In this document: piece by piece, positions 29,857 through 53,214 of the stretch
Numbering within the stretch: the stretch's first letter is position 1
Layout of the letters: each line of letters starts with the position of its first letter
DNA from: an uncultured Lachnospiraceae bacterium
GTDB taxonomy: Bacteria > Bacillota > Clostridia > Lachnospirales > Lachnospiraceae
Reading direction: 5' to 3'
DNA length: 64,000 bases
Assembly: GCA_937920345.1 (NCBI GenBank)
Contig: CALGVA010000031.1
Location: 8,824 to 72,823 of the forward strand
The notes under the pieces: model-generated
What the model was told of the DNA's origin: nothing
What the model saw: only the letters and a program-made list of their open reading frames with translations
The model's database searches: none
Program-made: the position numbers and the translations under genes

Positions 29857-29899
29857 TTTCTCCTCCATTCCGAAATCTTTATCATTATAACGCCCAAGA

Positions 29900-32559: not shown

Positions 32560-33652
32560 TTTTTTCCTCCACTCCGATAATGTTCCTTACCTCGTCCATA
32601 TATTCCCCCGTCACAAGCTTACGGTCGAATTCCCGTTCCATCTTCTCTCTGCCTGCCCGCCCCATCGCGGCACGCTCATCGACAGAAAGCGCCAGGAATT
32701 TCTTCATCGCCCCGATCAGCTCGTCCGCATGACCGGGCGTAAAACCGAAGCCGGTCCTGCCATCCTCGAAAGCCTCCAGACAGCCGCTGATATTCGAAGC
32801 GATCACCGGTCTTCCCGTCGCCGCACCCTCAATCAGCGCATTGGACATTCCTTCATGGAAAGAGGCCACCACAATCGCACTCGCCGCCGTCAGATAAGGG
32901 TGCACCTCTGTATGAAACCCGATCTGGCGCACAACGCCTTCCCGCTCCAGCGCATCCAGCATATCCTGATAATCTTCATCGCAGTACCCCATAATATCAA
33001 AGATAACCTTATCGCTATGTAACGCTCGCGCCGCCTCGATATACTCCAGAATACCCCGTTCCTTCATCACCCTGCCGACAAAGAGGAAATGCGTCTCATC
33101 GCCTGACGGATACGGCTCATACTTATGCCTGTCCAGATTTACACCGGAACCCATAACCATCCTCGTCTTCTTCGGCGTAATGCCAAACCTTTTAAAAATC
33201 CCTCTGTTTTCCTCATTCTGAAAGAAAACACATGCGGCACACTTAAGCCCTGTCCTGTACATGGTAACGATTACCTTCAGGAACATCCCCGTCCGGTCAA
33301 AGGCGCCGCCCAGTCCCGTGATCGTGGCGATATATGGAATCCTCCGTCTCGCGGCGGCAAACCCGCCGTATATATTCGGTTTGATCGTGTACGTCACCAC
33401 CAGATCGGGCCTCAGTTCCTTCATCAGCCTTTTGTACGCGCGGTACAGTTTCAGATCCTCCAGCGGATTCATGCCCCTGCGGTTGATTGCCGTCTTCACG
33501 ATCCGGCACCCTTCTGCCGCCAGTTCCTTCTCTTTCACATCGTCCGGCATACTGACATACACCTCATGCTCCGCCAGCATCGCCTGCACGAACTCATTGC
33601 GGAAATCATACAGTCCGCCGGAAGAATTTGTCAAAACCAGTATTCTGCCCAT
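32546..33652 (-). CDS. GT4-family glycosyltransferase (position analogous to PglA)
   Basis: ASFHEGMSNALIEGAATGRPVIASNISGCLEAFEDGRTGF. Confidence 0.75.
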   Translation of the reverse strand: MGRILVLTNSSGGLYDFRNEFVQAMLAEHEVYVSMPDDVKEKELAAEGCRIVKTAINRRGMNPLEDLKLYRAYKRLMKELRPDLVVTYTIKPNIYGGFAAARRRIPYIATITGLGGAFDRTGMFLKVIVTMYRTGLKCAACVFFQNEENRGIFKRFGITPKKTRMVMGSGVNLDRHKYEPYPSGDETHFLFVGRVMKERGILEYIEAARALHSDKVIFDIMGYCDEDYQDMLDALEREGVVRQIGFHTEVHPYLTAASAIVVASFHEGMSNALIEGAATGRPVIASNISGCLEAFEDGRTGFGFTPGHADELIGAMKKFLALSVDERAAMGRAGREKMEREFDRKLVTGEYMDEVRNIIGVEEKNGLI

Positions 33653-33676
33653 CGTTTTCTCCCATTCCTGTACAGG

Positions 33677-34660
33677 TTACACTACAATATCTTCTCCGTT
33701 CATATCGCGGACCACTATCTCATTATACTTCATCATGCAGATATTTTCCAAATAATTCCCGATATCGACCGGATTCTCCTGCCCTTCCAGATTGCGGACC
33801 ACCGACGATGCCATATTGACGCCGCAGGCATACGCGTGCGGATAGCCGCCGCCAAAGCGGGGATTCACCTCAGAAATATAATAGACCCCGCCGATTTCAA
33901 AGATATCAATATCAATCATCCCCCGGAAACCGCACGACTCCACGAAACTTCGAATCAGTGCAAACAGGTTCTCATCTTTAACAGACACGGATTTATCTGT
34001 CTCTCCGGCGCGCATCCTGATTTTCTTCTTGACAAAAATCGACGTGCACTTACCGGTTATCATGTCAATATACACGTCCGCACCGTATTCCTGTCCGTCC
34101 ATGTACTCCTGTATCATCAGATCATCGTAGAGATCATACAGCACCTCGATCTCCTTACGCCCCTCTACTTTGTTAATATGCAGGCTGGCACTGCCGCACA
34201 CAGGCTTCACAAACACCGGATAGGAAATCTCTCCCGTCTCCACCGCCTGATAGAAACATTCCTTATCAGAATAGCATCTGCCGGTCGGAATCTGCATCCT
34301 GCCAAGCAGCTCATACATCCTGTATTTATTCAAACAGGTTTCCACCAGATCATAATCCGATACAACCGGCGTCGTGCCGACCGCCAGAAATTTGTCCCGT
34401 TCTTTCGCCAACATACTCAGTTCCGGATCAATCAGTGAGAATACACCCGTTATTTTTTCTTTTTTACAGATATCCAGAATCACTTCCATATAATCCGGCG
34501 CCGTGATGCGCGGCACCAGATAGAAAGCATCCGCGTCGTAGACAGCCGGTGCCAGATTACTGCAGTCTGTAGCGATCACCCTGCCTCTGCCGGCTAATTC
34601 TTTTTTAAAATACTGCACGATCTTATTCCGCGTGCCCGCGCTCAATATCAATATATTCAA
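33677..34660 (-). CDS. ATP-grasp ligase
   Basis: ILILSAGTRNKIVQYFKKEL (pre-ATP-grasp), YPVFVKPVCGSAS, IQEYMDGQEYGADVY, ISEVNPRFGGGYPHAY. The start overlaps the PGT stop by 4 nt. Confidence 0.7.
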   Translation of the reverse strand: MNILILSAGTRNKIVQYFKKELAGRGRVIATDCSNLAPAVYDADAFYLVPRITAPDYMEVILDICKKEKITGVFSLIDPELSMLAKERDKFLAVGTTPVVSDYDLVETCLNKYRMYELLGRMQIPTGRCYSDKECFYQAVETGEISYPVFVKPVCGSASLHINKVEGRKEIEVLYDLYDDLMIQEYMDGQEYGADVYIDMITGKCTSIFVKKKIRMRAGETDKSVSVKDENLFALIRSFVESCGFRGMIDIDIFEIGGVYYISEVNPRFGGGYPHAYACGVNMASSVVRNLEGQENPVDIGNYLENICMMKYNEIVVRDMNGEDIVV

Positions 34661-35307
34661 TCTGACACCTGTGCCTTTCTCTGTTCTTCCATTCTCTTCC
34701 TGCGGATCTCCGCGAAGTTGCCCTCCACCGCATTGGTGTCCTCTGCCACCTCATCGGTATGTCCCAGCACCGTCTTCACCGTCATCCACAGTACCTTCAC
34801 ATCCATCCCGAAAGTAAGATGCTCCACATATTCCACATCCCTGGCAAGCCGCCTGTCCCAGTCGATATAATTGCGTCCGCTGACCTGCGCCAAGCCCGTC
34901 AGGCCGGGACGCACGCTGTGCCGGAGTTTCTCACGCTCACTGTAATACGGCAGATACGACACCAGAAGCGGTCTCGGCCCTATGATGCTCATGTCTCCTT
35001 TTAAGATATTAAACAGTTCCGGCAATTCGTCCAGACTCGTCCCTCTCAGGAACCTGCCGAACTTCGTCAGCCGCACCGCATCCGGCAGCAGATGACCGTT
35101 CTCGTCTTTTTCATCCGTCATCGTACGGAATTTACACAGCGTAAAGATCTTTTCATTCCTGCCCGGACGCTCCTGCCGAAACAGAACCGGGCTTCCCAGC
35201 TTCACGCGCACCAGAATACAGAGTACCAGCAGGATCGGGCTGAGCACTACAATACCGCACAGTGACAACAGAAAATCTAAAGCTCGCTTGATATATTTCT
35301 TATACAT
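34657..35307 (-). CDS. small monotopic phosphoglycosyl transferase, PglC/WcfS type (second initiating PGT)
   Basis: KRALDFLLSLCGIVVLSPILL, GSPVLFRQERPGRNEKIFTLCKFRTM, DELPELFNILKGDMSIIGPRPL. Confidence 0.85.
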   Translation of the reverse strand: MYKKYIKRALDFLLSLCGIVVLSPILLVLCILVRVKLGSPVLFRQERPGRNEKIFTLCKFRTMTDEKDENGHLLPDAVRLTKFGRFLRGTSLDELPELFNILKGDMSIIGPRPLLVSYLPYYSEREKLRHSVRPGLTGLAQVSGRNYIDWDRRLARDVEYVEHLTFGMDVKVLWMTVKTVLGHTDEVAEDTNAVEGNFAEIRRKRMEEQRKAQVSD

Positions 35308-35342
35308 ATACGATTCCTCTTTATCTCACGTCCCGGTACAAA

Positions 35343-36494
35343 TCATAATAATCCGTCTCCGAAGCACCCGCGCACTGTGCGGATGATCAGTTCCATATCT
35401 TCCTCTGTGTTCTTGATATCGCTGGGCAGGCAGAGCCCTCTGTGGAACACATCTGTTCCCACGCTGCTGCCGTCCTCATGATGGGTGATAAAATCATATT
35501 TTTCAAAAACAGGCTGCAGGTGCATCGGCTTCCAGATCGGTCTGCTCTCAATGTTCTCTTCCGCCAGCGCATCCATTACCATATCAGGTGTTACATTACA
35601 CCCGTTCTCAATCGTCATGCAGGACAGCCAGCAGTTTGCATCACCGTCTTCGTTCAATGGGTTCATGGTAATCTGCGGCAGATCCGCGAAAGCTTCCCGA
35701 TACTGCCTGTAGATCGCCTGTTTCTTCGCCTTATGCTCCTCTATATGGAGAAGCTGCCCTCTGCCGATTCCCGCCGTGACATTGCTCATGCGGTAATTGT
35801 AACCGATCTGAGAATGCTGATAATGTCTGGCCGGATCTCTCGCCTGTGTAGCCAGAAATGTCGCCTGTTTTGTCGCTTCCTCGTCGGCCGACACCAGCAT
35901 GCCGCCGCCGGAAGTCGTAATAATCTTATTGCCGTTAAAAGAATAGATTCCGTATTTGCCGAAAGTGCCCGTATGGCGTCCTTTATACGTACTGCTTAAA
36001 GATTCCGCCGCATCCTCGATCATCGGTACATGATGCTCTTCACAGATCGCCATGATCTCATCCAGTTTCGCAGGTGTACCGTAGAGGTGCACACAGATTA
36101 CCGCCTTTGGATGCGGATATTTCTCAAATGCCCTGCGCAGTGCCTCCGGAGACATGTTCCAGGTATCCGGTTCCGCATCGATAAACACGGGTGTCGCAGC
36201 CTCGTACGCAATCGGATTACAGGTTGCAGAAAATGTCAGATCTGACACAAACACAATATCCCCGGGACACACCCCGGCCAGCTTAAGCGCCAGATGGATC
36301 GCCGCCGTTCCTGCGCTTAACGCCGCCGCATGACCGCACCCTGTATACGCTGCAATCTCCTCTTCAAAAGAACTGACATTAGGTCCAAGCGGCGCAATCC
36401 AGTTGGTATCAAACGCTTCCTGCACATATTTCTGTTCCTCGCCATGCATAGTCGGACACGATAAGTATATCCTTTTTTTCTCCATAACAGACAC
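35343..36494 (-). CDS. DegT/DnrJ/EryC1-family sugar aminotransferase (PglE/EpsN-like)
   Basis: LSCPTMHGEEQKYVQEAFDTNWIAPLGPNV, GDIVFVSDLTFSAT, and the PLP-lysine block YSFNGNKIITTSGGG. Confidence 0.85.
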   Translation of the reverse strand: MSVMEKKRIYLSCPTMHGEEQKYVQEAFDTNWIAPLGPNVSSFEEEIAAYTGCGHAAALSAGTAAIHLALKLAGVCPGDIVFVSDLTFSATCNPIAYEAATPVFIDAEPDTWNMSPEALRRAFEKYPHPKAVICVHLYGTPAKLDEIMAICEEHHVPMIEDAAESLSSTYKGRHTGTFGKYGIYSFNGNKIITTSGGGMLVSADEEATKQATFLATQARDPARHYQHSQIGYNYRMSNVTAGIGRGQLLHIEEHKAKKQAIYRQYREAFADLPQITMNPLNEDGDANCWLSCMTIENGCNVTPDMVMDALAEENIESRPIWKPMHLQPVFEKYDFITHHEDGSSVGTDVFHRGLCLPSDIKNTEEDMELIIRTVRGCFGDGLL

Positions 36495-36567
36495 CCTTCC
36501 TTTCTGTTCCTGCCAAACCTCTCCGCTCTGTATGCCAGACCCTGATCAGCCGCATCCATCTATCGCA

Positions 36568-38460
36568 TTACATCGTATCTTTCAGTACCTCATCGTCCTG
36601 ACTGTGATAAGTCGGAACGATCCTCTTGATCAACGGTCTGATATCCGAATTTTCGACCTGACACTCATCCTTCAGTTCTTTTAACTGGGTAAAAAATTCA
36701 TGCTCATCGAGTTCGATCGGTTTCCCGATATGAATCATCCTGTTTGCGGTGTCCTTCATGCCCTCTTCATCCATGAGCAGCTCTTCATACAGTTTCTCGC
36801 CGGGGCGGAGTCCCGTAAACTTGATCTTAATATCCTCTCCCACACGGTAGCCCGACAGTTTGATCAGATTATGTGCCAGATCGAGTATTTTCACGGGTTC
36901 CCCCATATCCAGCACGAAAATCTCGCCGCCCTTCGCATAGGCGCCGGCCTGCAGGACAAGCGAAACCGCCTCTGGAATCGTCATAAAATAACGTATGATA
37001 TCCGGGTGGGTCACGGTAACCGGACCGCCCGCCGCGATCTGCTTGCGGAACAGCGGAATCACGCTGCCGTTACTGCCCAGCACATTGCCGAACCGGACCG
37101 CCACGAACTCCGTCTCATAATGCTTGTCAAAAGTCTGTATAATCATCTCGCAGATCCGTTTGCTGGCTCCCATGATGTTCGTCGGGTTTACCGCCTTGTC
37201 GGTGGAAATCATGACAAATCGCTGTACACCGCTCATGGCGGCTGCCTGCGCGGTCTTAAAGGTACCGAACACGTTATTCTTGATCGCCTCGGTAGGACTG
37301 TCCTCCATAAGCGGTACATGCTTATGCGCCGCGGCATGGTATACGATATCCGGTCGGTATTTTGAGAAAATATAATTCATGCGGTTGGTATTGCGCACGG
37401 ATGCAATCAGTACCACCAGATCCAGCTCCGGATATTTCGCCTTCAGTTCCTGCTGTACATCATAAACCGTATTCTCATAGATATCTACGATAATAAGCCG
37501 TTTCGGTCTGTGTATCGCGATCTGACGACACAGCTCACTGCCGATGGAGCCGCCGCCGCCGGTGACCAGCACCGCCTTGCCCTGCACATAGCCGAGAATG
37601 GAATCCAGATCCACGCTGATCGGATCTCTGCCCAGCAGATCCTCCACCTCCACGTCACGCAGTTTGCTGACATTAACTTCGCCGTTTACAAGCTGATACA
37701 TGCCCGGCAGGGAACGCAGCTTACAGTTTGTATCTTTACAGATTTCCAGAATGTTCTTAATCTCCGCCCTGCTGGCTGACGGCATCGCCACGATAATCTC
37801 ATCCACGTCATAGATATCGGCACACTCCACGATCTTGTCACGGCCGCCGACCACCTTGATGCCCTGGATAAATCTGCCCCATTTCCCCTTATCATCATCA
37901 ATAATGCACTTGATGACCATGGTCGAGAAATTGCTGTTGACAATCTCCTTAATGATCAGATTGGCAGCCTCCCCCGCGCCGATCACCATCACGGCAATCC
38001 GGTTCTTCTTATTCTGCTGCTTATGTTTCAGCCCGCGGAAGAAACGGTAGGAGAAACGGCTGCAGAAAATACATGTGATCAGCAGAAATAAATAAAAGAA
38101 ATAGTAACTCTTGGGTACCGCTCTGGACGAAGTTCTGAAAAACTGCAGGCAGACGCCATTTACAAGTGTAGACAGCGCACAGGATACCACGATGTTCTGC
38201 AATTCCGTCTCTCCTGCAAAAGCCCACAGACTGCTATAGAGACGAAATAGATAGAAGATTCCCAGCGTCATCACAATATTGAGCGGCATCACATGCTCGA
38301 TCGGGCTCATGAAATGCTCGGGTATCTCATCCACCCGGAACTCATAGCGCATCACGATCGCCAGGTAGCTCGACAGAACCACACTGATAATATCATATAC
38401 GATCAGGCAGGTTCTCCGGTAAAACAGCTTTACATTAAAAGGTTTTCTCTCTTTTTTCAT
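36568..38460 (-). CDS. membrane-anchored UDP-HexNAc 4,6-dehydratase, CapD/PglF type
   Basis: N-terminal TM helices, two Rossmann motifs (VMVIGAGEAA and VTGGGGSIGSEL) and ISTDKAVNPTNIMGASKRICE. The track start is TTG. The ATG at 38460 has AGGA upstream and removes the overlap with the upstream gene. Confidence 0.8.
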   Translation of the reverse strand: MKKERKPFNVKLFYRRTCLIVYDIISVVLSSYLAIVMRYEFRVDEIPEHFMSPIEHVMPLNIVMTLGIFYLFRLYSSLWAFAGETELQNIVVSCALSTLVNGVCLQFFRTSSRAVPKSYYFFYLFLLITCIFCSRFSYRFFRGLKHKQQNKKNRIAVMVIGAGEAANLIIKEIVNSNFSTMVIKCIIDDDKGKWGRFIQGIKVVGGRDKIVECADIYDVDEIIVAMPSASRAEIKNILEICKDTNCKLRSLPGMYQLVNGEVNVSKLRDVEVEDLLGRDPISVDLDSILGYVQGKAVLVTGGGGSIGSELCRQIAIHRPKRLIIVDIYENTVYDVQQELKAKYPELDLVVLIASVRNTNRMNYIFSKYRPDIVYHAAAHKHVPLMEDSPTEAIKNNVFGTFKTAQAAAMSGVQRFVMISTDKAVNPTNIMGASKRICEMIIQTFDKHYETEFVAVRFGNVLGSNGSVIPLFRKQIAAGGPVTVTHPDIIRYFMTIPEAVSLVLQAGAYAKGGEIFVLDMGEPVKILDLAHNLIKLSGYRVGEDIKIKFTGLRPGEKLYEELLMDEEGMKDTANRMIHIGKPIELDEHEFFTQLKELKDECQVENSDIRPLIKRIVPTYHSQDDEVLKDTM

Positions 38461-38470: not shown

Positions 38471-41056
38471 CTACGCCGCTTCTTTCCTGTCAATCAGGAG
38501 CGGTGCCATTGTCAACAGTAAACAGAATGCAATGGAACTGCATGGATGGAAGATCCATTCCGTCAGCCCCGCTACCGCGAAGAGAATCAGCAGGGCAAGC
38601 GGCAGCGCCGCACATATCCTGTCCTCTTTGCGTCTATGATAGTACACTGCCGCCTGCACCAGAGTGCCGACGCCCAGCAGAATAAATATCACGCCCACAT
38701 AGATGCCGTGATCATAAGCGACCTGCAGATAGATATTGTGCGCATGGACGTTATAATGACCGTTCGGCTCCATAATACCCATATCGTCATGACCGATCCT
38801 GTTCAGATTATTATAATACAGTCTGAAAATTTTCAGTCTTCCATTTGTATAGGAATCTTCTTCCTCCTGCTCCACGCCATCCTGATTCTCCGCCTGCACC
38901 TGCGTGTCCGCAGATGCGATCTCTATCACGCCTTCCTCCACAGCAATCCCGCTGTCTGTCGGCATATTCCTCACACCTGCGTCTGTATTTCCTGCGGAAG
39001 CAAGAAGAATTTCTTCGTCCTTTGCCCTCACAAAACCGTCCGTGCACTCCTCTCCTGCATCCGTAAGCATGTCCATCGCCTGCAGGCTCTCCATCTCCGG
39101 TATACCCAGCACTTTCATCTGAAACACCTGTATGAACCGCTGAATCGTAATATAGTATTCGGAATCCATATCCCTGCCGTGTACGATCTCGACAGGCAGT
39201 TCCTCGATCTCATGCAGCTCCGGTCTGGCAATCGCAGCAGGAACTGCTCTCTGCGCCGTAAAGACCGCCGGAAAACAGACAAAGACCGCAAGCAGCATCA
39301 TTGCGCCGCCTCGCAGAATACTGCGCCATCTGCTCTTCATGGAGAAGCATGTTACAGGAAGCATGACCACCGCCATGACCATAACTGCCAGATACCCTGT
39401 TCTCGACAGCGTCAGCAGCAGATACACCACCGACACGCCAAACAGAATCAGTTCCTTATAAACAGCAGCAAGTCTCTGTTCTCTTCTATATGCATCTAAG
39501 AACTTCACAAATGCCGCGCACACTACAAGCGCAAGATATACCGCAGACATCGTCACCGTATGGAAAATAAACGGATATCTGTAATATTGAAAGAACATAT
39601 ACGGTCTGTGCAGCAGACAGTACAGCACCATCACGCTAAAGTGCAGCAGGATGCCGTTACAGATATTGCGGAGCAGAGACGCCTTGCCTTCCCACGCCGC
39701 CATGTTCACATAGAACAGCACAAAAGCACATACCAGATAGACAGGCCATCCCCGTGTATTACGATACAACATAATCGCCGCAAAAAACACCGCCACCAGA
39801 ATACCATACGCAGCGCTTATGCCCTTAACCTGCCTCCGCACCAGAACCCGTATCGTGCCAATCACTACCAGTCCCGCAAGAATCCCCGCCCAGACGGTGA
39901 GTTTCACTGTAAGGATCTCCATCTCCTCCGGATCCGTAAGCACCGCCATCGCGCCGTGATAATAACGCTGTGCAAAGAAAGCCGCCGCAATCAGATACAC
40001 CAGATTAATAATATTAAAAATGTCCTTTCGCTTATAAGTCACAATGACCGCCAGCGCAAAGAAAATCAGCTGCTGCCTGTATGCTACGGTATGATGGATC
40101 TCATACAGACCGTTCATATAATTACAGCATGCCCAGAGTGCGCCTGCAATAAAGACAGACTGCAGTCCGTTTCCCATATTTGTTTTCAGAACGTCAAATA
40201 TCGTTCTGTCCGAAGCGCAGCCTGTACGGTCATGGTTGACCGCATAGAGCAGCAGCGCTGCTGTCACCAGGATACTCCCCTCGTAAAAAAGAATCGACAC
40301 GGTATTGGTCGTAAGCAGCCTGCAGGGCCACACCGCCACACAGGCAGCGGCCGCCGCAATCACAATGAGCGGATTACACACTGCTTTGACCGTCTGTTCC
40401 ACCGTAACCAGTACATTCTTCTCCGGCCGCCTGTCATAATATTTCCCCGTCAGGTAAGTAACGGCAGCCGCAAACAACACAAACAGGGCAGCACACACCA
40501 GTGTCTTGCCCTTGCGAAGCGGTACCTCGTACTCATACGCGGCAATCATACAGCGCTGCGTGTCTTCCACATTGCCGTAGTACAGTGTACCGTTGTAAAT
40601 ATTATCTGTCTGCGCCGTATATTGATACGCAACCCGGAACGGTTCTTCGATCCCCTGCAGCAGGAAATAATATTCCCTTCCTACCTGCGTATCGATATTG
40701 ACCTGCACCGTGCAGTATCCCGGAATATGCTTCATATCTTTTGTGTCGATCACCTGCTGCATGATCACCTGCATGGCTGCATCATATAATACGAAGTTAA
40801 ATTCCTCTCCTGCCGTTCCCTCATGGATATAAATATCAATATTTTTCAGTCTGTCATACTGGGCGATGAACATCTGCTGTACCACATAACCTGATGTGAT
40901 CTCTTCAGATTCCATGAGCGTCTCCGGAAGTGTCCTGCCGTTGGCAGTTACCGTTTCCTTAATCAGACGAACCGGCCACAGCGCAAGCAGCGCACACAGC
41001 ACGATGATCCAGAGCGTTTCACAGATCGCCTCTCTTCTAGTGATTATTCTGTTCAT
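38471..41056 (-). CDS. 861-aa Wzy_C/O-antigen-ligase-family membrane protein (WaaL/PglL-like ligase or polymerase)
   Basis: Many TM helices, LSRTGYLAVMVM, and a C-terminal HN-x9-G block (HNIYLQVAYDHG) as in WaaL-type ligases. It also carries a roughly 150-aa soluble insertion with an acidic tract, ENQDGVEQEEEDS. Confidence 0.6.
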   Translation of the reverse strand: MNRIITRREAICETLWIIVLCALLALWPVRLIKETVTANGRTLPETLMESEEITSGYVVQQMFIAQYDRLKNIDIYIHEGTAGEEFNFVLYDAAMQVIMQQVIDTKDMKHIPGYCTVQVNIDTQVGREYYFLLQGIEEPFRVAYQYTAQTDNIYNGTLYYGNVEDTQRCMIAAYEYEVPLRKGKTLVCAALFVLFAAAVTYLTGKYYDRRPEKNVLVTVEQTVKAVCNPLIVIAAAAACVAVWPCRLLTTNTVSILFYEGSILVTAALLLYAVNHDRTGCASDRTIFDVLKTNMGNGLQSVFIAGALWACCNYMNGLYEIHHTVAYRQQLIFFALAVIVTYKRKDIFNIINLVYLIAAAFFAQRYYHGAMAVLTDPEEMEILTVKLTVWAGILAGLVVIGTIRVLVRRQVKGISAAYGILVAVFFAAIMLYRNTRGWPVYLVCAFVLFYVNMAAWEGKASLLRNICNGILLHFSVMVLYCLLHRPYMFFQYYRYPFIFHTVTMSAVYLALVVCAAFVKFLDAYRREQRLAAVYKELILFGVSVVYLLLTLSRTGYLAVMVMAVVMLPVTCFSMKSRWRSILRGGAMMLLAVFVCFPAVFTAQRAVPAAIARPELHEIEELPVEIVHGRDMDSEYYITIQRFIQVFQMKVLGIPEMESLQAMDMLTDAGEECTDGFVRAKDEEILLASAGNTDAGVRNMPTDSGIAVEEGVIEIASADTQVQAENQDGVEQEEEDSYTNGRLKIFRLYYNNLNRIGHDDMGIMEPNGHYNVHAHNIYLQVAYDHGIYVGVIFILLGVGTLVQAAVYYHRRKEDRICAALPLALLILFAVAGLTEWIFHPCSSIAFCLLLTMAPLLIDRKEAA

Positions 41057-41134
41057 TATCGATTCCCGATCTTCTCTACAATATCATAACAGTCCGACCG
41101 CACATTACACTCAGCTGCCAGAATATCATTGCTT

Positions 41135-41163
41135 AGTATATCACGATTGTATATTTTTTACAA
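41135..41163 (-). promoter_or_regulatory. candidate sigma-A promoter for the ligase/PglF-E-C sub-operon
   Basis: The minus strand reads TTGTAA-17 nt-TATACT, preceded by TGA (extended -10). It lies in the 116-bp gap downstream of the stop at 41173. Confidence 0.4.
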
Positions 41164-41172: not shown

Positions 41173-42984
41173 TTATACCTCCTCCAGCAATATGGCCGCA
41201 AAAAGCGGCAGGCCATACCAGAAGATCAGCACATACCGGGGCAGATAAGTGGGACCGAGCAGAACCGTCAGCCAGACCGTGAGTACCATCATATAGGGAA
41301 TCACAATATTGTACTTGCGGCGGTACAGCATATAAGCGAACACGAAGGCGATGCCCCAGAAGATTCCGCCCGGAGAATAGAGCATGGAATAGATCGGAAT
41401 CTTTTCCTGGGAAATCTCCAGAGCCAGCTTGCGGTATGCCGCGTCAAGCCATGGAATCTTGCTGTCCCTGAATCCCGGTTCCTCCACTTCGTATCCGAAA
41501 TAGGAGCTTTCTCCATATGTGAACGTAAATACCGTATTGCCGGAATAGACATCAATCACCGTATCGGGATACCAGAAGCCGTAGGAGTTCACCAGCCACG
41601 CATTGATATAAGATAAAGGCTTCTTTAATCCGATCCGCAGCCAAAGTCCTGCATACTTCGACTTGTCCGCGGCAAATACCTCATTCTGAAAACGTACCTT
41701 CACCGGATCAGACAGCTTGGGATTGTATAACACCAGCGCCTCTTCCGGCAGGATCTCGTGCAGTATGTCAATATCCTCCTGCTCGAAGGCTTCCCTGTTG
41801 AATTTATAGGTTCTTGCAAGCTGCTGGATCGGAACCGTAAGGATCTCCTGATTCTCTCCTCCTGTTGCATGAAACGCTACCGTCAGCCCTGTGTTAATCA
41901 CGAAATAGGCAAGAAAAATCATACCTATGAGAAGTCCCGTTTTCTTCAGATTCTGTTTGTGATAAACGAGCAGAATCGGCACCATCACGGCGAACGCATA
42001 GACGCCGTTTTTACGAAACAGCATCATGGCCACAGCGCTCAATACGAAGAAAAGCATTTTACGGTTGGATGTGAAAAACTGCTGTTCGACGCTGCCCATA
42101 TCGATCAGCGCCAGCAGCAGGAGCAGCAGTGCCACTGTAAACAGCGTATCCTTGGCGGAGCAGAGCGTAAACATCACGATCACCGGAAAAAAAGCGAAGT
42201 AGAGCAGCGAAAGCAGACGGACCCCGCGGGAAACCTTCCGCCGCCGCATGAAAGAAAGCAGATAGGTAAATCCGCCTGAAACAATCATCATCTGTACCAC
42301 CATATAGCAGGCAATCCCCAGATTATAGGAATCCGTCACTTTATGCACCGCGCAGATGATACCGCCCAGCATAAGAACATGAACGAGCGGATGGTGCGTA
42401 TTAAAATTTCTGGATGCCACCTGCAGCCACTCATCCTGTGCATCGTAGACGAAGAACCCCGGATATACCGCGAGCAGCACGGGAAGCCAGCATAAAATCA
42501 TGAAAAGAAAGGTAAGCAGATTCGCATACCTGGCCGCGCGCTGCGGCGCCTCAGGCATTCTGATATGCTTCGCAAGCCTGTTCTTCCTTCCTTCCATGCC
42601 GCCCAGAAAATCCCAGAATTTTCTCACCAGAACAGTGAACAGACATGTCAGAACCGGCAGTGAAACCCACAGTTTCCAGTCTTTAAAATTCACGTTTCCC
42701 ACCGCATCGAGACGAACGCCAAACAGCATCGCCGCAGTAAACAAACCGGACAGCACGCCTGCGATCGTCCACCCCCTCCGGTCCCGCAGATCAATCGTCT
42801 GCAGCGAGCGGTTCACCGCATACAGACAAAGCAGCCACACGAAAACCGCAAATATACTGTTCGTGAAGCCGATCGTATTCTCTTTCAGATTTAAAACCTG
42901 AGGAAAGCAGAGCGTTCCCGCCGTCGCAAGCAGGAAAGCCAGTGTACTCAGTTTCATTTTGATTCTAAATTCATTCTCGTTCAT
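41173..42984 (-). CDS. GT-C-like polytopic membrane protein (YfhO/ArnT-like role inferred)
   Basis: More than 12 hydrophobic helices, an acidic loop motif VYDAQDEW and a large C-terminal external domain. It overlaps the GtrB-like gene by 14 nt. Confidence 0.45.
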   Translation of the reverse strand: MNENEFRIKMKLSTLAFLLATAGTLCFPQVLNLKENTIGFTNSIFAVFVWLLCLYAVNRSLQTIDLRDRRGWTIAGVLSGLFTAAMLFGVRLDAVGNVNFKDWKLWVSLPVLTCLFTVLVRKFWDFLGGMEGRKNRLAKHIRMPEAPQRAARYANLLTFLFMILCWLPVLLAVYPGFFVYDAQDEWLQVASRNFNTHHPLVHVLMLGGIICAVHKVTDSYNLGIACYMVVQMMIVSGGFTYLLSFMRRRKVSRGVRLLSLLYFAFFPVIVMFTLCSAKDTLFTVALLLLLLALIDMGSVEQQFFTSNRKMLFFVLSAVAMMLFRKNGVYAFAVMVPILLVYHKQNLKKTGLLIGMIFLAYFVINTGLTVAFHATGGENQEILTVPIQQLARTYKFNREAFEQEDIDILHEILPEEALVLYNPKLSDPVKVRFQNEVFAADKSKYAGLWLRIGLKKPLSYINAWLVNSYGFWYPDTVIDVYSGNTVFTFTYGESSYFGYEVEEPGFRDSKIPWLDAAYRKLALEISQEKIPIYSMLYSPGGIFWGIAFVFAYMLYRRKYNIVIPYMMVLTVWLTVLLGPTYLPRYVLIFWYGLPLFAAILLEEV

Positions 42985-43924
42985 TACTTTGCTCCGGTCC
43001 GTTCAGGCATTCCCGAACCACATACTGAGGAGAGTTATTCAGCGAGATGTAGATTCTCCCGATATATTCTCCGATCAGACCTAACATCAGCATAATCATA
43101 CCGCCGAGGAACACCAGCGCCGCCATCATGGCGCTGAATCCGACGGGTACATTCGGATTCACAAATTTCTTGACAACTGTATAGATTCCGTACAGGAATC
43201 CTGCGCAGGCAGTCAGGCATCCCACCGCCGTTGCGATTCGCAGCGGTTTGATGCTGAAAGCGGTAAATCCGTTAAACCACAATCCCAGCAGCTTGCCTAT
43301 GGTATAGCCCGACGTTCCCGTCTCCCGCTCCCTGTGCGTTACTTCCACGTTGGTGATATTCCTGGTGGCGCGGAGCACAAGTCCGATCACATACGGATAC
43401 GGGTTGTCATAGCGCAGCATCTCTTCCACTACATATCTTCTCACCGCAAAATAACTGGAGAGGTACAGGTCTTTCGGTTTGCCCAGCATCACCCTCGTCA
43501 TCAGTTCATTGACACGGCTCCCGAAATTGCGGAATCCCGAATGCTGTTTGTGCCCGTATCTGGCATATACGACGTCATAGCCTTCTTCAATCCTGGCAAG
43601 CAGTCTGCCGGCCTCGTCAGCAGGCGTCTGCCCGTCATCGTCCAGACATACCACCACATCTCCGTGCGTATGACGCATACCCGCCATCAGCGCCGCATGC
43701 TGCCCGAAATTCTTCGCCAGATCGATCCCGCATATGTCACTGCGTCCGGCGCAAAGCTCCCGGATCACCCCGAATGTATCATCCGGAGAACTGTCGTTGA
43801 CCAGCACGATCTCATAGTCATACGCCGGCATATCTTTCATCGTGCTGTCAATCTCTTCCACTACCTTACCGATGGTCTGTGCCGACCGGTAACACGGGAT
43901 TACAAAACTTACAAGTTTCGTCAT
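42971..43924 (-). CDS. GtrB/ArnC/CsbB-like polyprenyl-phosphate glycosyltransferase (GT2 with two C-terminal TM helices)
   Basis: VSFVIPCYRSAQTIGKVVEEI, IVLVNDSSPDDT, CLDDDGQ. The two C-terminal TMs are TAFSIKPLRIATAVGCLTACAGFLYGIY and FSAMMAALVFLGGMIMLMLGLIGEYIG. GGAGG lies 5 nt before the ATG at 43924. Confidence 0.75.
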   Translation of the reverse strand: MTKLVSFVIPCYRSAQTIGKVVEEIDSTMKDMPAYDYEIVLVNDSSPDDTFGVIRELCAGRSDICGIDLAKNFGQHAALMAGMRHTHGDVVVCLDDDGQTPADEAGRLLARIEEGYDVVYARYGHKQHSGFRNFGSRVNELMTRVMLGKPKDLYLSSYFAVRRYVVEEMLRYDNPYPYVIGLVLRATRNITNVEVTHRERETGTSGYTIGKLLGLWFNGFTAFSIKPLRIATAVGCLTACAGFLYGIYTVVKKFVNPNVPVGFSAMMAALVFLGGMIMLMLGLIGEYIGRIYISLNNSPQYVVRECLNGPEQSNERE

Positions 43925-43972
43925 CGTTTCCTCCATATCCAAACTGCCCCTGACATAATTTCAGCAGCAGGC

Positions 43973-44584
43973 TTATTGTCCAGTCTCCGCTTCATACATC
44001 GCCATAAACCGCTCCCTGTCAGTCTCCATAAAAAGCACTTCCCGCCTCCCCTGCTTCGTCATGACAGTCTCTTTCCTGTCCGTCATAACAAAACCGGCAT
44101 GCTCATAACTCTTCCGGGCCGCCGTATTGCCCGCCAGAAAGCGCAGATAGATCTTCCGCAGAGGCAGCTTCGTAAAAGCATAGTAAAGCGCCTCCCTCGC
44201 CGCCGCCGTACCGTAACCGTGTCCGAGCGCCTCCTCTTCCCCGATAAAAATTCCGTACTCGGCAGCGCCCTGATCCCTGTCAATATCGCGGAAATAAACG
44301 CTGCCGATCTCCCGGCCGTCGGGCAGGCAGATGATGAACTGTACTACATGCCCCTTCTCCACCTGGTTCCGAATCCATGACAGATGTCCCTCTCTTGTAA
44401 AAGGCTCCTGATATATAAAGTTTGTCTGCACAAAATCCTTATTGCGCCACGCGACGATTTTGTCCGTATCTTCCTCTGTCATCGGGCGCAGGTCAACCGT
44501 ATTCTGCATCGTTTTGTCTGTAAACGCTCTCCTTCTTCCGCTTTCTGATCTATCACAAGGCATTTCACACTGCTGCCGCAGCAT
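43973..44584 (-). CDS. GNAT-family N-acetyltransferase (PseH/WecD-like role possible)
   Basis: LRPMTEEDTDKIVAWRN...EYGIFIGEEEALGHGYGTAAAREALYYAF is a GNAT acetyl-CoA block. The start is uncertain because no candidate ATG has a good SD. Confidence 0.6.
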   Translation of the reverse strand: MLRQQCEMPCDRSESGRRRAFTDKTMQNTVDLRPMTEEDTDKIVAWRNKDFVQTNFIYQEPFTREGHLSWIRNQVEKGHVVQFIICLPDGREIGSVYFRDIDRDQGAAEYGIFIGEEEALGHGYGTAAAREALYYAFTKLPLRKIYLRFLAGNTAARKSYEHAGFVMTDRKETVMTKQGRREVLFMETDRERFMAMYEAETGQ

Positions 44585-44595
44585 ATATGCATCGA

Positions 44596-46662
44596 TTATC
44601 TGACTTCGATCCGGTAAACACGATATGTCCCGGCGTCTCCGATCACATCTGCCTGCTCTACAGTCACTCCGATATTATGCGCTGCATAATACGCCGTGAT
44701 CCAGTCCATTCCGCGCTCTGCCTGCTCAGCACTGGACATGATAAAATACACATGATCCTGCGTATACAGCGCATCGCCTGCGTTGTCGATCCCCGACCGC
44801 CGCAGTTTCTCACGGTACAACGGACTCTTACACATCCATCCGCCCATGATATCATAATTGGCATAGCCGTTGTCGGAACCGTCAAACAATCTGTGTGAAA
44901 ATGCCACCGTGGAATACACATCCTCGAAATAGAAATTTCCCTCATGCGCTCTGCAGTACGCATCGATCGCCTCTCTGTCCTGATTGACCAGCTCCCTGCG
45001 CATCTGATCCTCCCGCACCGCCGGGACACTGTCCATCAACGCGGCCATAAGAAGCACGCCCGCCAGAACTGCCAGACCGCGCGCCATTCCTTGTCCGGAC
45101 ATCGTATCGGCGCATCGTGCGTTTCTGCCGGCCGGTGCATGCCCCCGCACTGTACCGCCCATACTGCTGTCATCTGCCCGCAGTCTTAGTACCAGCATAC
45201 CCATAAGCAGCGCAAACTCCGCAAGATACAAGGAATGTGTGATCCGCTCGGGATCACGTCCTCTCATGAGAATGAACATCCACAGCGCGCTGCGCACAGC
45301 CGCCAGTAATACCAGCTGCCACACGAAAACATATCGTCTGCCTGTCCTCTCTCCGGCAGTCTTCACATATTTCCGGCTCCTGTTATGTTCTGCCGGTCTT
45401 ACATGTTTTCCGTCCTGTTTCGTCTTGTCCTCTGCTGCACGCAGCCGCCACGCCGTTAAAATGCCCGTCAGAAACACCGCCGCATACGCCCAGAGCACCA
45501 TGATATTGTAAGGTGCATCGCCGCTGTGCAAAGTCCGGTAGCGGTAGAAGCCGAGCTTTTCCCGAAAAATGCCCGGCCAGTCCTTCGAGGCGCCGATCGT
45601 ATGCACGGCATAATCCGCCAGTTCTGACAACAATGCCGTGTCGATCGCTTCATCCAGTCCAAAATTGTAATTGCGAAGCAGCGTCTGCTGATGCGGTGCT
45701 GCACCAAGTTCCGTAAGTGCGCCGCTGTAGCTGTCATCAGTGATGAGCTCCGGATAAAAGTCATAGACCGTCGTTCTGGCATCGAAGAAATCCCTGAAAT
45801 CTTTCCACTGCGCACTGCTGTATGCAGCCTTATCCGCCACGAAAGACAGAAACATTCCAATTAGTATGATCCCCAGCACGCCGCCGTATTTGTATAGATT
45901 TTCTTTCAGGAATATCTTCCGCTCCTCCACGAGACGATACAGGCCCGCCAGACAGATCAGGGGAAAAGTGAGCAGCAGCATCTCAGAGCGTAACTGGTAA
46001 GCCGTCACCACAAGGATAACGGAAGGAATATTTTTTACAACAAACCGGCGCGTATCCAACCCCGCCGGCGTGGTCAGAAATAAAAAGATCGCAGCCGCCG
46101 ACAGCATCGTGCAGGTAATCGTATACTGTATATTGATCAGGTGGGACAGGCACACACCCCATAAATACAGTGATAAGCCCAGAAGTACGGCACATTTGCG
46201 CAGCAGGTTGTCCCCGCGCTTTTGCCCCGTATACTCTGTTCTGCTTCCACACAGCGCACACAGCCTCATACCGGCCAGATAAAAACTGCCGAACTGACAC
46301 AGGCACAGAAACAGTCCGTACCACGGTATCGTCCTGCACATTCTATAGCACAGCGCAATCAGCGCGCCCAGCGGATACAGGGTCTGCATGTTATGCCCGT
46401 CAGGCGTTCCGCTGTATATGCCCGCCATGATATCACGCATCATCGTGTCATCATTTAAGTCATAATAGAAGTCAAAGCAGATCCCCATCAGAATCACATT
46501 GGCTGCTATGAAGCCCAGCGCAAGTATGCAGTTCTCATATTTTCTTATTCCCCTGTCCTGTTCCATGGACTGCATACCCTCTGAATTCCTTTCATGGACG
46601 CTGTTTTGCCTGGTCTTATATGCATCCGCTTTTGTCAAAAGCGTTGTCGCACATACCTTCAT
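44596..46662 (-). CDS. GT-C-like polytopic membrane protein
   Basis: An N-terminal membrane domain with YYDLNDDTMMRD after TM1 and a C-terminal soluble domain. The start may be further downstream (M33, GAGGG upstream). Confidence 0.45.
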   Translation of the reverse strand: MKVCATTLLTKADAYKTRQNSVHERNSEGMQSMEQDRGIRKYENCILALGFIAANVILMGICFDFYYDLNDDTMMRDIMAGIYSGTPDGHNMQTLYPLGALIALCYRMCRTIPWYGLFLCLCQFGSFYLAGMRLCALCGSRTEYTGQKRGDNLLRKCAVLLGLSLYLWGVCLSHLINIQYTITCTMLSAAAIFLFLTTPAGLDTRRFVVKNIPSVILVVTAYQLRSEMLLLTFPLICLAGLYRLVEERKIFLKENLYKYGGVLGIILIGMFLSFVADKAAYSSAQWKDFRDFFDARTTVYDFYPELITDDSYSGALTELGAAPHQQTLLRNYNFGLDEAIDTALLSELADYAVHTIGASKDWPGIFREKLGFYRYRTLHSGDAPYNIMVLWAYAAVFLTGILTAWRLRAAEDKTKQDGKHVRPAEHNRSRKYVKTAGERTGRRYVFVWQLVLLAAVRSALWMFILMRGRDPERITHSLYLAEFALLMGMLVLRLRADDSSMGGTVRGHAPAGRNARCADTMSGQGMARGLAVLAGVLLMAALMDSVPAVREDQMRRELVNQDREAIDAYCRAHEGNFYFEDVYSTVAFSHRLFDGSDNGYANYDIMGGWMCKSPLYREKLRRSGIDNAGDALYTQDHVYFIMSSAEQAERGMDWITAYYAAHNIGVTVEQADVIGDAGTYRVYRIEVR

Positions 46663-46685
46663 TCAGGCAGTACCTTTTTCGTCTC

Positions 46686-47813
46686 TTAACAGTAGAAATC
46701 CTTCACCTGCTCCGCAATGTACTCCGTCTCGTCCGCGGTCAGCGTATAGAACATAGGCAGGCGCAACAGTCTATCACTTTCCTTTGTCGTATACTTATCC
46801 TCCCCGTGGAATCTGCCGAACTTCATGCCTGCCGGCGCAGAGTGCAGCGGCACATAGTGGAATACCGCCAGAATATCCTTCTCCGCCAGGAAATGAATCA
46901 GTCTGGTCCGCTCCTCCATATCTTTCGTCTTAATATAAAACATATGTCCGTTATGTTCACAGTACTCCGGCACATAAGGCAGTTCGATCTTCCCCGCCTC
47001 CGCCAGCGGTGAAAGCAGTTCCTGATACTGCTTCCATCTGTTAAGTCTTGCCTGCGTAATCTCCTCCGCCTGTTCTAACTGCGCGTACAGATAAGCGGCA
47101 TTCATGTCGCTGGGCAGATAGGAAGACCCATAGTTCTGCCAGCGGTACTTATCTACCTGCCCGCGGTAATATTTGCTCCTGTCCGTTCCCTTTTCCCGAT
47201 AGATTTCCGCCGCCTCAATATACTGTTCATCCCGTATGAGCAGCGCACCGCCCTCACCCATACTGAAATTCTTCGTCTCGTGGAAGCTGAAGCAGCCAAA
47301 ATCCCCGAAGGTTCCAAGCGGCCTGCCCTTATAGGAAGCCATGATTCCCTGTGCCGCATCCTCGACCACCATCAGGTTATGCCGTCTCGCAATGTCCATG
47401 ATGGCGTCCATCTCGCAGCCCACACCTGCATAGTGTACCGGCACAATAGCCCTGGTATGCTCCGTAACAGCGTCCTCAATCAGACGCTCGTCCATATTCA
47501 TAGTTTCCGGTCTGATATCCACGAATACGGCCGTCGCACCGCGCAGCACAAATGCATCCGCCGTGGACACGAATGTATAGGACGGCATGATCACCTCGTC
47601 CCCCGGCTTGATTTCCGCCAGCAGTGCCGCCAGTTCCGTCGCATGGGTGCACGAAGTCGTAAGCAGGCACCTGGCTGTACCGGTCTGCCGCTCGATCCAC
47701 TCGCTGCACTTTCTTGTAAAGGGTCCGTCTCCACAGATCTTCTGGTTCTCGACGGCCTGCTTCATATACTCAAATTCTTTGCCCGTAAAAGGAGGCACGT
47801 TAAAGTTGATCAT
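46686..47813 (-). CDS. wecE: dTDP-4-amino-4,6-dideoxygalactose transaminase
   Basis: Near-collinear similarity to E. coli WecE as I recall it: FNVPPFTGKEFEYMKQAV..KICGDGPFTRKC, GDEVIMPSYTFVSTADAFVLRGA, VPVHYAGVGCEMD, FSFHETKNFSMGEGGALL, RGQVDKYRWQNYGSSY, HMFYIK, VFHYVPLH, TTKESDRLLRLP. Confidence 0.85.
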   Translation of the reverse strand: MINFNVPPFTGKEFEYMKQAVENQKICGDGPFTRKCSEWIERQTGTARCLLTTSCTHATELAALLAEIKPGDEVIMPSYTFVSTADAFVLRGATAVFVDIRPETMNMDERLIEDAVTEHTRAIVPVHYAGVGCEMDAIMDIARRHNLMVVEDAAQGIMASYKGRPLGTFGDFGCFSFHETKNFSMGEGGALLIRDEQYIEAAEIYREKGTDRSKYYRGQVDKYRWQNYGSSYLPSDMNAAYLYAQLEQAEEITQARLNRWKQYQELLSPLAEAGKIELPYVPEYCEHNGHMFYIKTKDMEERTRLIHFLAEKDILAVFHYVPLHSAPAGMKFGRFHGEDKYTTKESDRLLRLPMFYTLTADETEYIAEQVKDFYC

Positions 47814-47853
47814 GTCTGTAATCCTCTCTGTATGCTGCTTCGATGATTTCTAT

Positions 47854-47882
47854 AGTATACCACACTCTCACTCTGGTGTCAC
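47854..47882 (-). promoter_or_regulatory. candidate sigma-A promoter upstream of the wecE-like gene
   Basis: The minus strand reads GTGACA-17 nt-TATACT, preceded by TGG (extended -10). The -35 overlaps the stop codon of the upstream gene. GAGAGGA lies before the ATG at 47813. Confidence 0.4.
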
Positions 47883-49718: not shown

Positions 49719-49777
49719 TCTCTCCTGATTGTTCGCCTTCGGCAAGGTTGCCGGGTGCAAAGTCCTGACCCGAACTG

Positions 49778-50848: not shown

Positions 50849-50871
50849 AGCCTTTTCCTCTATTCTTCATG

Positions 50872-51300
50872 TCACTTTTTTTCCTTAAAGATCCATAACT
50901 TACTCAGAAAATAATTTGCCAGAATCACAATCACCTGACACACAAATTTGGAGATAAACTCGTTCAGATGCGCGCAGTCCACCATCAGAAACATAAGCGC
51001 GACTTCCAAAAGCTCCGTCGCAACTCTTGCGCCGATGAACGAGGCAAATTCCCCGAACAGAGACTTCGCATCTTTATTTTTGCTTTTAAAAACAAAAGTA
51101 CGGTTTGTCCAGTACGCAAACACAACCGTCAGCGCCCATGACAGCACAGTCGCCACCAGATAGTGCAGATCCATCACTTTTGAAAACAGATAATAGAGCG
51201 CATAATTCAGTACAAATGCAAGAAAACCGAAGATCAGATAATTGATCCCTTCCTCGTACTTCTTATACATGCCCCAGCCGAAATCCCATAATTTTTTCAT
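50872..51300 (-). CDS. GtrA-family small membrane protein
   Basis: 142 aa with four helices: INYLIFGFLAFVLNYALYYLF, WTNRTFVFKS, VILANYFLSKLWIFK. Confidence 0.75.
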   Translation of the reverse strand: MKKLWDFGWGMYKKYEEGINYLIFGFLAFVLNYALYYLFSKVMDLHYLVATVLSWALTVVFAYWTNRTFVFKSKNKDAKSLFGEFASFIGARVATELLEVALMFLMVDCAHLNEFISKFVCQVIVILANYFLSKLWIFKEKK

Positions 51301-53155: not shown

Positions 53156-53214
53156 AACCGCTGCGTGCCCTTTCCGAATCCCAAGCGTCTGTCTCAAATC
53201 CAAAATATCATTAT

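Follow-up and report, generated by a model that had tools for sequence, protein, structure and literature searches.

A 64,000-nucleotide stretch of a contig from an uncultured Lachnospiraceae bacterium (CALGVA010000031.1 of assembly GCA_937920345.1, positions 8,824 to 72,823; hereafter called the window) carries on its minus strand a gene for an 861-residue membrane protein, placed directly ahead of genes resembling pglF, pglE and pglC. The question raised by this locus is whether the protein hands a finished, lipid-linked glycan to a final acceptor, as do the O-antigen ligase WaaL and the protein O-oligosaccharyltransferase (O-OTase) PglL, or joins repeat units into a polymer, as do Wzy polymerases, and, if the former is true, what the acceptor might be. 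The original prediction, made from the sequence by itself, had proposed a WaaL/PglL-type ligase serving a general or S-layer protein O-glycosylation system. We read the gene product as an integral-membrane ligase of the WaaL type (CAZy GT121-like), an enzyme of a known kind with a new architecture. On the evidence set out below, we consider it rather more probable that the protein acts as an en bloc ligase of glycans linked to undecaprenyl diphosphate (Und-PP) than that it acts as a polymerase.

A WaaL-type core in an enlarged membrane protein

We built an AlphaFold2 model of the protein on 48 diverse relatives, which reached a predicted local distance difference test (pLDDT) score of 85.9 and a predicted template modelling (TM) score, pTM, of 0.87; a model based on 28 close homologues gave a pLDDT of 51 and was unusable. 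When the model was compared with the PDB using Foldseek, the sole membrane-protein match was the O-antigen ligase WaaL (7TPG_B), with a probability of 1.0 and a target-normalised TM-score of 0.53 over 542 columns at 15% identity. Profile-profile comparison was performed with hhalign, using a 25-sequence alignment of E. coli-type WaaL proteins, and residues 490-860 aligned with residues 158-416 of WaaL (probability 86%, E 5e-6). The match improved to a probability of 90.9% and an E of 1.2e-6 over 231 columns when an acidic linker was trimmed, and reversed-sequence controls gave probabilities of 0.3-0.6%. The 25-sequence profile was needed, as a single E. coli WaaL sequence was uninformative (probability 0.8%).

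The hhalign alignment paired residues that are invariant in both families. These were R493 with R161 of WaaL, R552 (in the motif SRTG) with R215 (TQTR), R740 (NGRL) with R288 (GARL), H771-A-H773-N774 with H336-L-H338-N339, and G784 with G349 (the codons lie at 39578-39580 for R493, 39401-39403 for R552, 38837-38839 for R740 and 38705-38746 for H771, H773, N774 through to G784). The HN-x9-G block picked out in the original prediction is thus present as H773-N774-x9-G784, is invariant across the family and is aligned with H338-N339-x9-G349 of WaaL. His773 was found in all 48 sequences, which share 21-69% identity. R215, R288 and H338 are functionally important residues of WaaL, and their counterparts in PglL are R224, R298 and H349 (PMC3643930). 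With the WaaL invariants aligned and the catalytic His in place, assignment to the WaaL/PglL type of ligase was upheld. Of the clusters (at 50% identity) recovered in an exhaustive search, 679 had E<=1e-3 and 200 had E<=1e-30; their members were nearly all 800-1000 aa long and matched over their full length, so that the enlarged build is common to ~680 clusters.

In the AlphaFold2 model an N-terminal helix is followed by a beta-sandwich, fourteen helices (residues 182-609), a loop (residues 610-774) and three last helices. Lys and Arg accounted for 17 of 73 residues in inside loops and 5 of 54 in outside loops, a positive-inside count that places the N-terminus within the cell. According to this topology, with which hydropathy agrees, the beta-sandwich, R493, R552 and the catalytic loop in its entirety are external, and with them every invariant residue. 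The comparison of predicted topology and structure with WaaL that had been proposed earlier therefore gave both a fold match to 7TPG and an external location for the invariant residues.

The beta-sandwich is a jelly-roll (pLDDT ~80-93) that holds a family-invariant Tyr, Y176, and its Foldseek matches were carbohydrate-binding modules (CBMs) and other jelly-rolls (7zvo, target-normalised TM-score 0.51; 2cdp, 0.46). The membrane bundle that follows has approximately five more helices than WaaL before the first conserved Arg, and residues 182-489 matched the WaaL profile weakly, in its N-terminal half (hhalign probability 17%). The jelly-roll domain and the extra helices are additions particular to this lineage and probably serve to bind the acceptor or the glycan. 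Values of pLDDT below 50 were confined to residues 659-733, a linker with 22 Asp and Glu as against 6 Lys and Arg. The linker of relatives is 48-109 aa long with a median net charge of -14, and it is always acidic, while its sequence and length vary. An unusual soluble insertion of ~150 aa with an acidic tract had been described for this region; the acidic tract is real, but the supposed insertion is the canonical WaaL-type catalytic loop, which reaches 165 residues (610-774) through lengthening by the acidic linker.

The similarity to WaaL (E. coli K-12; Cupriavidus metallidurans, 7TPG; family GT121) therefore extends to the fold, to the invariant external residues, to a long external loop that precedes the final three helices and to a presumed Und-PP-glycan donor. 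WaaL has ~400-420 aa and 12 helices, whereas the protein described here has 861 aa and ~18 helices, in agreement with the earlier remark that its size is well above that of typical Wzy or WaaL proteins. At a sequence identity of ~15%, the two are beyond the reach of HMMER. The large size stems from four additions to a WaaL-like core, namely an anchor helix, the jelly-roll domain, approximately five extra helices and, within the catalytic loop, the 75-aa disordered acidic linker. None of these four features is covered by any Pfam or NCBIfam model.

Predicted promoter and conserved locus of the proposed ligase gene

The ligase gene ends with a TAG codon (38471-38473), and 10 nt separate it from the ATG (at 38460) of the gene for the 630-aa Polysacc_synt_2/PglF-like dehydratase. 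Open reading frames (ORFs) and Pfam matches confirmed that this gene is followed by those for a DegT aminotransferase and a PglC-like enzyme, as had been predicted. Upstream, the promoter-like element consists of a -35 hexamer TTGTAA (41163-41158), a 17-nt spacer and a -10 hexamer TATACT (41140-41135), with TG (41143-41142) one base 5' of the latter, and lies 78 nt upstream of the ATG. In this sequence alone it is an unimpressive match to the consensus (9/12), since matches of this quality occur at 32 sites in 19 kb where ~21 would be found by chance. Among 72 related loci, however, 43 had exact TTGTAA-N17-TATACT in the 130 nt that precede the orthologue. Across these 43 loci the two hexamers and the TG were 100% conserved, as against 55-90% for the spacer, and the distance of the element from the orthologue's ATG ranged from 0 to 97 nt. 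Conservation persisted to ~50% protein identity, and the background of exact matches was 54 in 2.9 Mb of locus DNA, counting both strands. Retention of the exact element around a variable spacer, against this background, is what a functional extended -10 promoter would be expected to leave behind; a promoter belonging to the ligase gene had been claimed originally, and this claim gains from conservation what it lacks as a match by itself. In the distant lineages L075 and L077 the genes overlap, and a separate promoter is not evident. The sequence GGGAA ahead of the ATG is the probable ribosome-binding site, with AGGAA or GGGAA found at the same distance from the start in relatives. No Rfam family or repeat was detected in scans of the leader region or of the window.

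The gap between the ligase gene and the preceding DUF6020 gene had a median of ~104 nt in relatives and repeatedly contained insertions of up to 8 kb, whereas the gap between the ligase and PglF-like genes was almost always 9-10 nt. In locus L005, a gene for an identical ligase protein stands behind unrelated sugar-uptake genes, the upstream module being missing, yet it still precedes the PglF-E-C genes. This arrangement, the constant downstream gap and the promoter-bearing upstream gap place the ligase gene at the head of the PglF-E-C module, as was first suggested.

The DUF6020/ligase junction (window 41057-41172) is an insertion hotspot in relatives. The inserts include a gene for a 2651-aa BspA-leucine-rich repeat (LRR)/DUF285/Listeria-Bacteroides-repeat surface protein (L070:1889-9841), genes for two DUF6709 membrane proteins (L001:8213-9942), and those for small membrane proteins in L033 and for proteins of 818-834 aa in L048 and L053. 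We considered this junction as a site for an acceptor gene and rejected it, as the inserts (an LRR adhesin, DUF6709 proteins and others) are heterogeneous and offer no consistent candidate.

The surroundings of the gene were surveyed by tblastn over 72 loci, covering 10 kb on either side in relatives; nine loci were annotated with Pfam, and 68 other loci were compared by tblastn alone. A core of ~20 kb begins with genes for an Acyl_transf_3 protein, a polytopic protein of ~600-690 aa, a DegT protein, a second polytopic protein of ~620-690 aa, a GNAT protein, a family 2 glycosyltransferase (GT2), DUF6020 and the ligase, and continues through those for the PglF-like, DegT and PglC-like enzymes to an ATP-grasp protein, a GT4, a sugar dehydrogenase, in some loci a 451-aa membrane protein, and an epimerase. 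Each core gene was found in 40-71 of the 72 loci. The same order, with the PglK-like ABC exporter gene first, was seen in relatives whose ligase is 21-30% identical, and synteny of this ~20-gene pathway, which spans ~680 sequence clusters, extends over ligase identities from 90% down to ~21%. Close relatives occur in at least 68 GTDB species; almost all of their records are entered as uncultured Lachnospiraceae, a few bear other names, and the source samples were guts of mouse, rabbit, deer and human. Deep conservation sets this system apart from capsule loci, which vary between strains. The coordinates of its features are collected in Table 1.

Table 1. Features of the ligase gene, its product and the flanking modules, in window coordinates.
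Feature	Residues	Coordinates	Strand	Evidence or remark
WaaL-type ligase gene		38471..41056	minus	861 aa, ATG start, stop codon included
Sigma-A-type extended -10 promoter		41135..41163	minus	sequence and conservation in orthologous upstream regions
Probable ribosome-binding site GGGAA		41063..41067	minus	6 nt before the ATG at 41056; putative
N-terminal transmembrane helix, N-terminus inside cell	7-26	40979..41038	minus	AlphaFold2, hydropathy, positive-inside count
Extracytoplasmic jelly-roll/CBM-like beta-sandwich	33-179	40520..40960	minus	AlphaFold2, Foldseek
Membrane bundle, ~10 helices	182-485	39602..40513	minus	AlphaFold2
WaaL-homologous catalytic core	490-860	38477..39589	minus	hhalign against the E. 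coli WaaL family
Disordered acidic linker inside external catalytic loop	659-733	38858..39082	minus	AlphaFold2, composition
Reducing-end sugar module, co-transcribed		34657..38460	minus	synteny in 65-71 of 72 loci
PglF-like 4,6-dehydratase, 630 aa		36568-38460	minus	Pfam, NCBIfam
DegT/PglE-like aminotransferase		35343-36494	minus	Pfam, NCBIfam
PglC-like phosphoglycosyltransferase (Bac_transf), 216 aa		34657-35307	minus	Pfam, NCBIfam
Rest of downstream module: PylC-like ATP-grasp, GT4, TviB-like UDP-HexNAc 6-dehydrogenase, 451-aa polytopic protein, WbpP/WbgU-like 4-epimerase		28879..34660	minus	
Upstream module: PglK-like ABC exporter, Acyl_transf_3, three GT-C-like proteins, DegT, GNAT, ArnC/PgfS-like GT2		41173..53224	minus	

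The TviB-like dehydrogenase, predicted to act on a uridine diphosphate (UDP)-linked N-acetylhexosamine (HexNAc), and the WbpP/WbgU-like epimerase suggest UDP-N-acetylgalactosaminuronic acid (UDP-GalNAcA) as the source of a second sugar. The locus of the distant relative L077 encodes a 639-aa fusion of a PglC-like protein to a GT4 (L077:18160-20079), which supports the idea of a functional unit making an Und-PP-disaccharide. The 451-aa polytopic protein of the downstream module is not universal, being absent in L001 and L074. It was considered as a second Wzy_C protein and set aside, as single-sequence hhalign was uninformative and some relatives do not have the gene.

The three large polytopic GT-C-like proteins of the upstream module have 693 aa (with a weak PMT_2 match), 688 aa and 603 aa (DUF6020). 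Together with the ArnC/PgfS-like GT2 and the GtrA genes of relatives, they suggest a second, decorating branch, which would modify the product outside the cell from sugars linked to undecaprenyl phosphate (Und-P). A partial Arn-like logic can be recognised in the ArnC/PgfS-like GT2 (42971-43942), a DegT protein (46686-47813), the GNAT protein and an ArnA-N-like formyltransferase (26921-27874); relatives (L001, L003 and L074) add GtrA genes and genes of the DUF2334/deacetylase-like type. The complete pathway for 4-amino-4-deoxy-L-arabinose (Ara4N; Arn) was rejected in part: the epimerase is a WbpP/WbgU-like 4-epimerase of the short-chain dehydrogenase/reductase type and not an ArnA-type decarboxylase, the dehydrogenase is TviB-like, and Arn-like proteins are limited to the formyltransferase and the GT2. 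These Arn-like genes and the GT-C-like proteins suggest an Und-P-aminosugar donor and extracytoplasmic decoration. The ORF of the 693-aa GT-C-like protein (47868-49949, with a GTG start) overlaps the Acyl_transf_3 gene (49778-50848) by ~170 nt, and the true start of this protein is probably further downstream.

Ligation, polymerisation and the nature of the acceptor

O-antigen ligases carry a His at a position where the related inverting Wzy polymerase families have Asp or Glu (PMC10920833, Meitil 2024). In the protein described here, this position holds the invariant His773. We scanned window ORFs of at least 150 aa, including all of those on the coding strand and two on the plus strand, and among them found no MOP/Wzx flippase (Polysacc_synt, MurJ or MatE), no Wzz/CpsCD regulator and no LytR-CpsA-Psr (LCP) protein. 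The window encodes two ABC exporters, and PglK was the best NCBIfam match of both, as anticipated, although each fell below the equivalog cut-off. The ligase gene is also tied to the PglF-E-C genes, and the reducing-end sugar is the part of the donor that a ligase must recognise. The invariant His, the exporter context, this tie and the deep conservation of the locus together argue for a ligase rather than a polymerase.

In the mechanism that we propose, the co-transcribed PglF-, PglE- and PglC-like enzymes would make the reducing-end sugar, a 4-amino-4,6-dideoxy-HexNAc derivative, and load it onto the lipid. One GT4 or more would then lengthen the glycan, the added sugar probably being a uronic acid of the GalNAcA type, and a PglK-like ABC exporter would flip it. 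The ligase would take the completed Und-PP-linked glycan, transfer it en bloc to the final acceptor and release Und-PP. By analogy with WaaL, the diphosphate-binding residues would be R552 and R740, along with R493, and H773 would serve to activate the acceptor or to position it.

The Lachnospiraceae are a Gram-positive family not known to make lipopolysaccharide (LPS), and the lipid A-core acceptor of WaaL is therefore probably absent. An analogy is offered by TacL (RafX) of S. pneumoniae, a Firmicute Wzy_C protein proposed to ligate an Und-PP-linked chain onto a membrane glycolipid (PMC5727136). The chain in that system has a 4-amino-trideoxy-HexNAc (AATGal) as its reducing-end sugar, with which the linkage to PglF/E/C-like genes seen here is consistent on the donor side, and its pathway is conserved and not serotype-variable. 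Compared by description, TacL differs in having 397 aa without extra domains and in not adjoining sugar genes in this way. A glycolipid or lipoglycan acceptor would fit the deep conservation of our locus and the presence of decoration genes typical of wall polymers. By analogy with TacL we give a slight preference, as the acceptor class, to a conserved glycolipid or lipoglycan of the envelope over proteins, the two scenarios being comparably likely.

The protein scenario is a sub-case of ligation, with the same chemistry and the acceptor specified: an O-OTase of the PglL, PilO, WsaB or WsfB type that would modify Ser, Thr or Tyr of S-layer, pilin, adhesin or many envelope proteins. We regard it as possible, with odds that fall well short of even. 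PglL, PilO (TfpO) and PglS have a Wzy_C core and the R/R/H residues, so that this catalytic set is common to PglL and to the protein described here, and they are often paired with bacillosamine-type reducing-end sugars. Their architecture is different, however, and the PglL_A motif (PF15864), which separates PglL from WaaL (PMC3643930), was not detected in the ligase at E<=1 or in the 48 relatives at E<=0.01. The combination of PglF/E/C-like enzymes, ATP-grasp protein and PglK-like exporter recalls the Pgl pathways of Neisseria and Campylobacter. PgfS, which was the second-best NCBIfam match of the neighbouring GT2, is part of the protein-glycosylation machinery of S. mutans.

Firmicute precedents also exist, as WsaB (Geobacillus) and WsfB (Paenibacillus) are Gram-positive proteins that carry Wzy_C (PMC2943079). 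The wsfB gene has been reported to be monocistronic, forming its own transcription unit (PMC2943079), and the glycan of the WsaB system of G. stearothermophilus is exported by an ABC transporter. WsfB and PglL are reported to have a C-terminal tetratricopeptide repeat (TPR; PMC2943079). In contrast to WsfB, compared here by description, our protein has no such repeat according to Pfam and ends in a transmembrane helix, and an S-layer gene or slg-type context was not seen. Pfam gave no S-layer homology (SLH) or S-layer match in the scanned window ORFs, and no pilin, SLH or S-layer match in the called genes of the nine Pfam-annotated loci, where no adjacent pilin was therefore found; pilins are shorter than the ORF cut-offs. 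A gene for a pilin or another target glycoprotein was adjacent in 21 of 31 PglL-type cases (Schulz 2013). The 2651-aa BspA-LRR surface protein of L070 is encoded directly upstream of the ligase gene and would suit such an acceptor, but the genes inserted at this junction are heterogeneous among loci. The earlier preference for general or S-layer protein O-glycosylation over a capsule thus stands in so far as the locus is deeply conserved and not capsule-variable, while a protein acceptor, with PglL_A and TPR not detected, is one of the two comparably likely scenarios.

Several findings weigh against ligation as such. The protein alone scored 22 bits (E 1.6e-4) with the Pfam model Wzy_C (PF04932), its sole match in Pfam, the gathering score of which is 31.7. 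The Wzy_C-type core of the original prediction holds for the family, with matches in 32 of the 48 diverse relatives at E<=0.01 (best E 2.2e-8) and precomputed PF04932 matches in many close homologues, and is a sub-threshold match in this protein on its own. NCBIfam gave no match to the ligase at E<=1, and HMMER profile searches of all PDB sequences at E<=10 gave no relevant match, so that kinship with WaaL was shown through fold and profile-profile comparison. A MurJ/MatE-type flippase gene lies upstream, beside the locus, in the relative L077, and the conserved core encodes a single cytoplasmic glycosyltransferase (GT4) besides PglC, which suits a disaccharide repeat needing a polymerase. No acceptor gene consistently linked to the locus was found at the upstream junction. 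The distinction between His and Asp/Glu was drawn in a single comparative survey, and unclassified polymerases may depart from it. Wall polymers of Gram-positive bacteria are usually attached by LCP enzymes, and WaaL is not needed.

A Wzy-type polymerase would join Und-PP-linked repeat units, for example of a bacillosamine derivative and GalNAcA, into a conserved wall polymer attached by LCP enzymes encoded elsewhere; a local LCP protein or other ligase would then be unnecessary. Pfam Wzy_C covers polymerases too, a core limited to PglC and a single GT4, which L077 has as a fusion, would be usual where the repeat unit is short, and the locus has no other universal candidate for a polymerase, the 451-aa protein being missing in L001 and L074. 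Wzy polymerases (the BP-Pol families of clan GT-C1) indeed resemble the ligase in superfamily, fold, Und-PP-linked donor and conserved external Arg. They differ in the residue at the position of the ligase His, where the inverting families have Asp or Glu and the present family an invariant His, and all four WaaL invariants are matched here. In addition, Wzx and a chain-length regulator were not found in the window scan while a PglK-like ABC exporter is present, and Wzy proteins are hypervariable, unlike a ligase conserved across at least 68 species. Polymerisation is, on balance, the less likely function but a real rival.

A WaaL-fold protein with another role, such as a scaffold or chaperone for its three GT-C-like neighbours or an enzyme using a different lipid-linked donor, might account for the unusual build (jelly-roll, approximately five extra helices, disordered acidic linker) and for the constant company of DUF6020 and the other GT-C-like proteins, but the catalytic R/R/H residues stay strictly invariant over ~680 clusters and at identities as low as 21%, which speaks for WaaL-type catalysis having been kept and makes this very improbable.

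Further glycan genes of the window and the meaning of the family

The ligase locus is part of a co-directional minus-strand block of ~61 kb, within which the search for plus-strand ORFs that match Pfam significantly turned up one alone, a NUDIX hydrolase gene (53325-53858). Outside the 10 kb on either side that were covered in relatives, the window holds a NeuB/CMP-synthetase/GT52 set at 53.7-58 kb and, at 0.3-27 kb, more than a dozen glycosyltransferases, a second ABC exporter and a WbaP-like primer. Genes for NeuB, a CMP (cytidine monophosphate)-sugar synthetase-like protein, a GT52 sialyltransferase-like protein, one GT10 and at least two GT11 proteins are found at 53767-58000, 27946-28869, 13721-14737 and 1448-2374; a third GT11 fucosyltransferase-like candidate (10859-11914) is a weak match. 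A GT52 gene beside an ABC exporter gene was also seen in the distant relative L075. These sialic acid and fucose genes may indicate an outer glycan that bears sialic acid or fucose and resembles those of the host.

Two paralogues of asparagine synthase (AsnB-like glutamine amidotransferases; 15937-17892 and 20401-22338) are encoded amid the glycosyltransferases and are candidate enzymes for amidating the uronic acids of the glycan. A second priming enzyme (a 470-aa WbaP-like protein with Bac_transf and CoA_binding_3) and the second PglK-like ABC exporter are encoded at 4651-6063 and 11908-13809, with DUF6056 and a 407-aa polytopic protein nearby, and may make up a further pathway for a lipid-linked glycan within this co-directional block. 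At the right end of the glycan locus (61634-63902, minus strand) are the large (GH2) and small (Bgal_small_N) chains of a beta-galactosidase of the LacL/LacM type, the ORF of the large chain being cut by the ORF listing or by the window edge.

A broader reading, which we put forward tentatively and think doubtful as a whole, is that strain-variable glycans on a constant core form an LPS-like envelope glycoconjugate system conserved in the Lachnospiraceae, a newly recognised class of antigen. The ligase, with its built-in CBM-like domain, would recognise the constant reducing end, consisting of a bacillosamine-type sugar and a uronic acid, and the acceptor would be a conserved membrane glycolipid or many envelope proteins. 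Decoration outside the cell would be carried out by the three GT-C-like enzymes, fed from the ArnC-like Und-P-aminosugar branch. The glycans may mimic those of the host, given the GT10/GT11 fucosyltransferase-like, GT52 sialyltransferase-like and NeuB genes of the window.

Lachnospiraceae are among the most abundant gut bacteria, and full-text searches of the literature, covering DUF6020 and the pairing of Lachnospiraceae with O-antigen ligase or bacillosamine, yielded no description of this family or locus. The ligase gene marks an uncharacterised, deeply conserved envelope-glycan pathway of gut Lachnospiraceae, and its conserved extended -10 promoter provides a defined regulatory entry point. 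Since enzymes of the WaaL/PglL type tolerate varied glycans, a Gram-positive ligase specific for a bacillosamine-type reducing-end sugar could interest glycoengineers. If the protein is the true final ligase, this one gene would be the point at which the glycoconjugate could be genetically stripped from the cell surface altogether, its acceptor traced and its part in host-microbe interaction probed. Should the broader, LPS-like reading also hold, the locus would specify a major, previously unrecognised class of surface antigen of abundant gut commensals.

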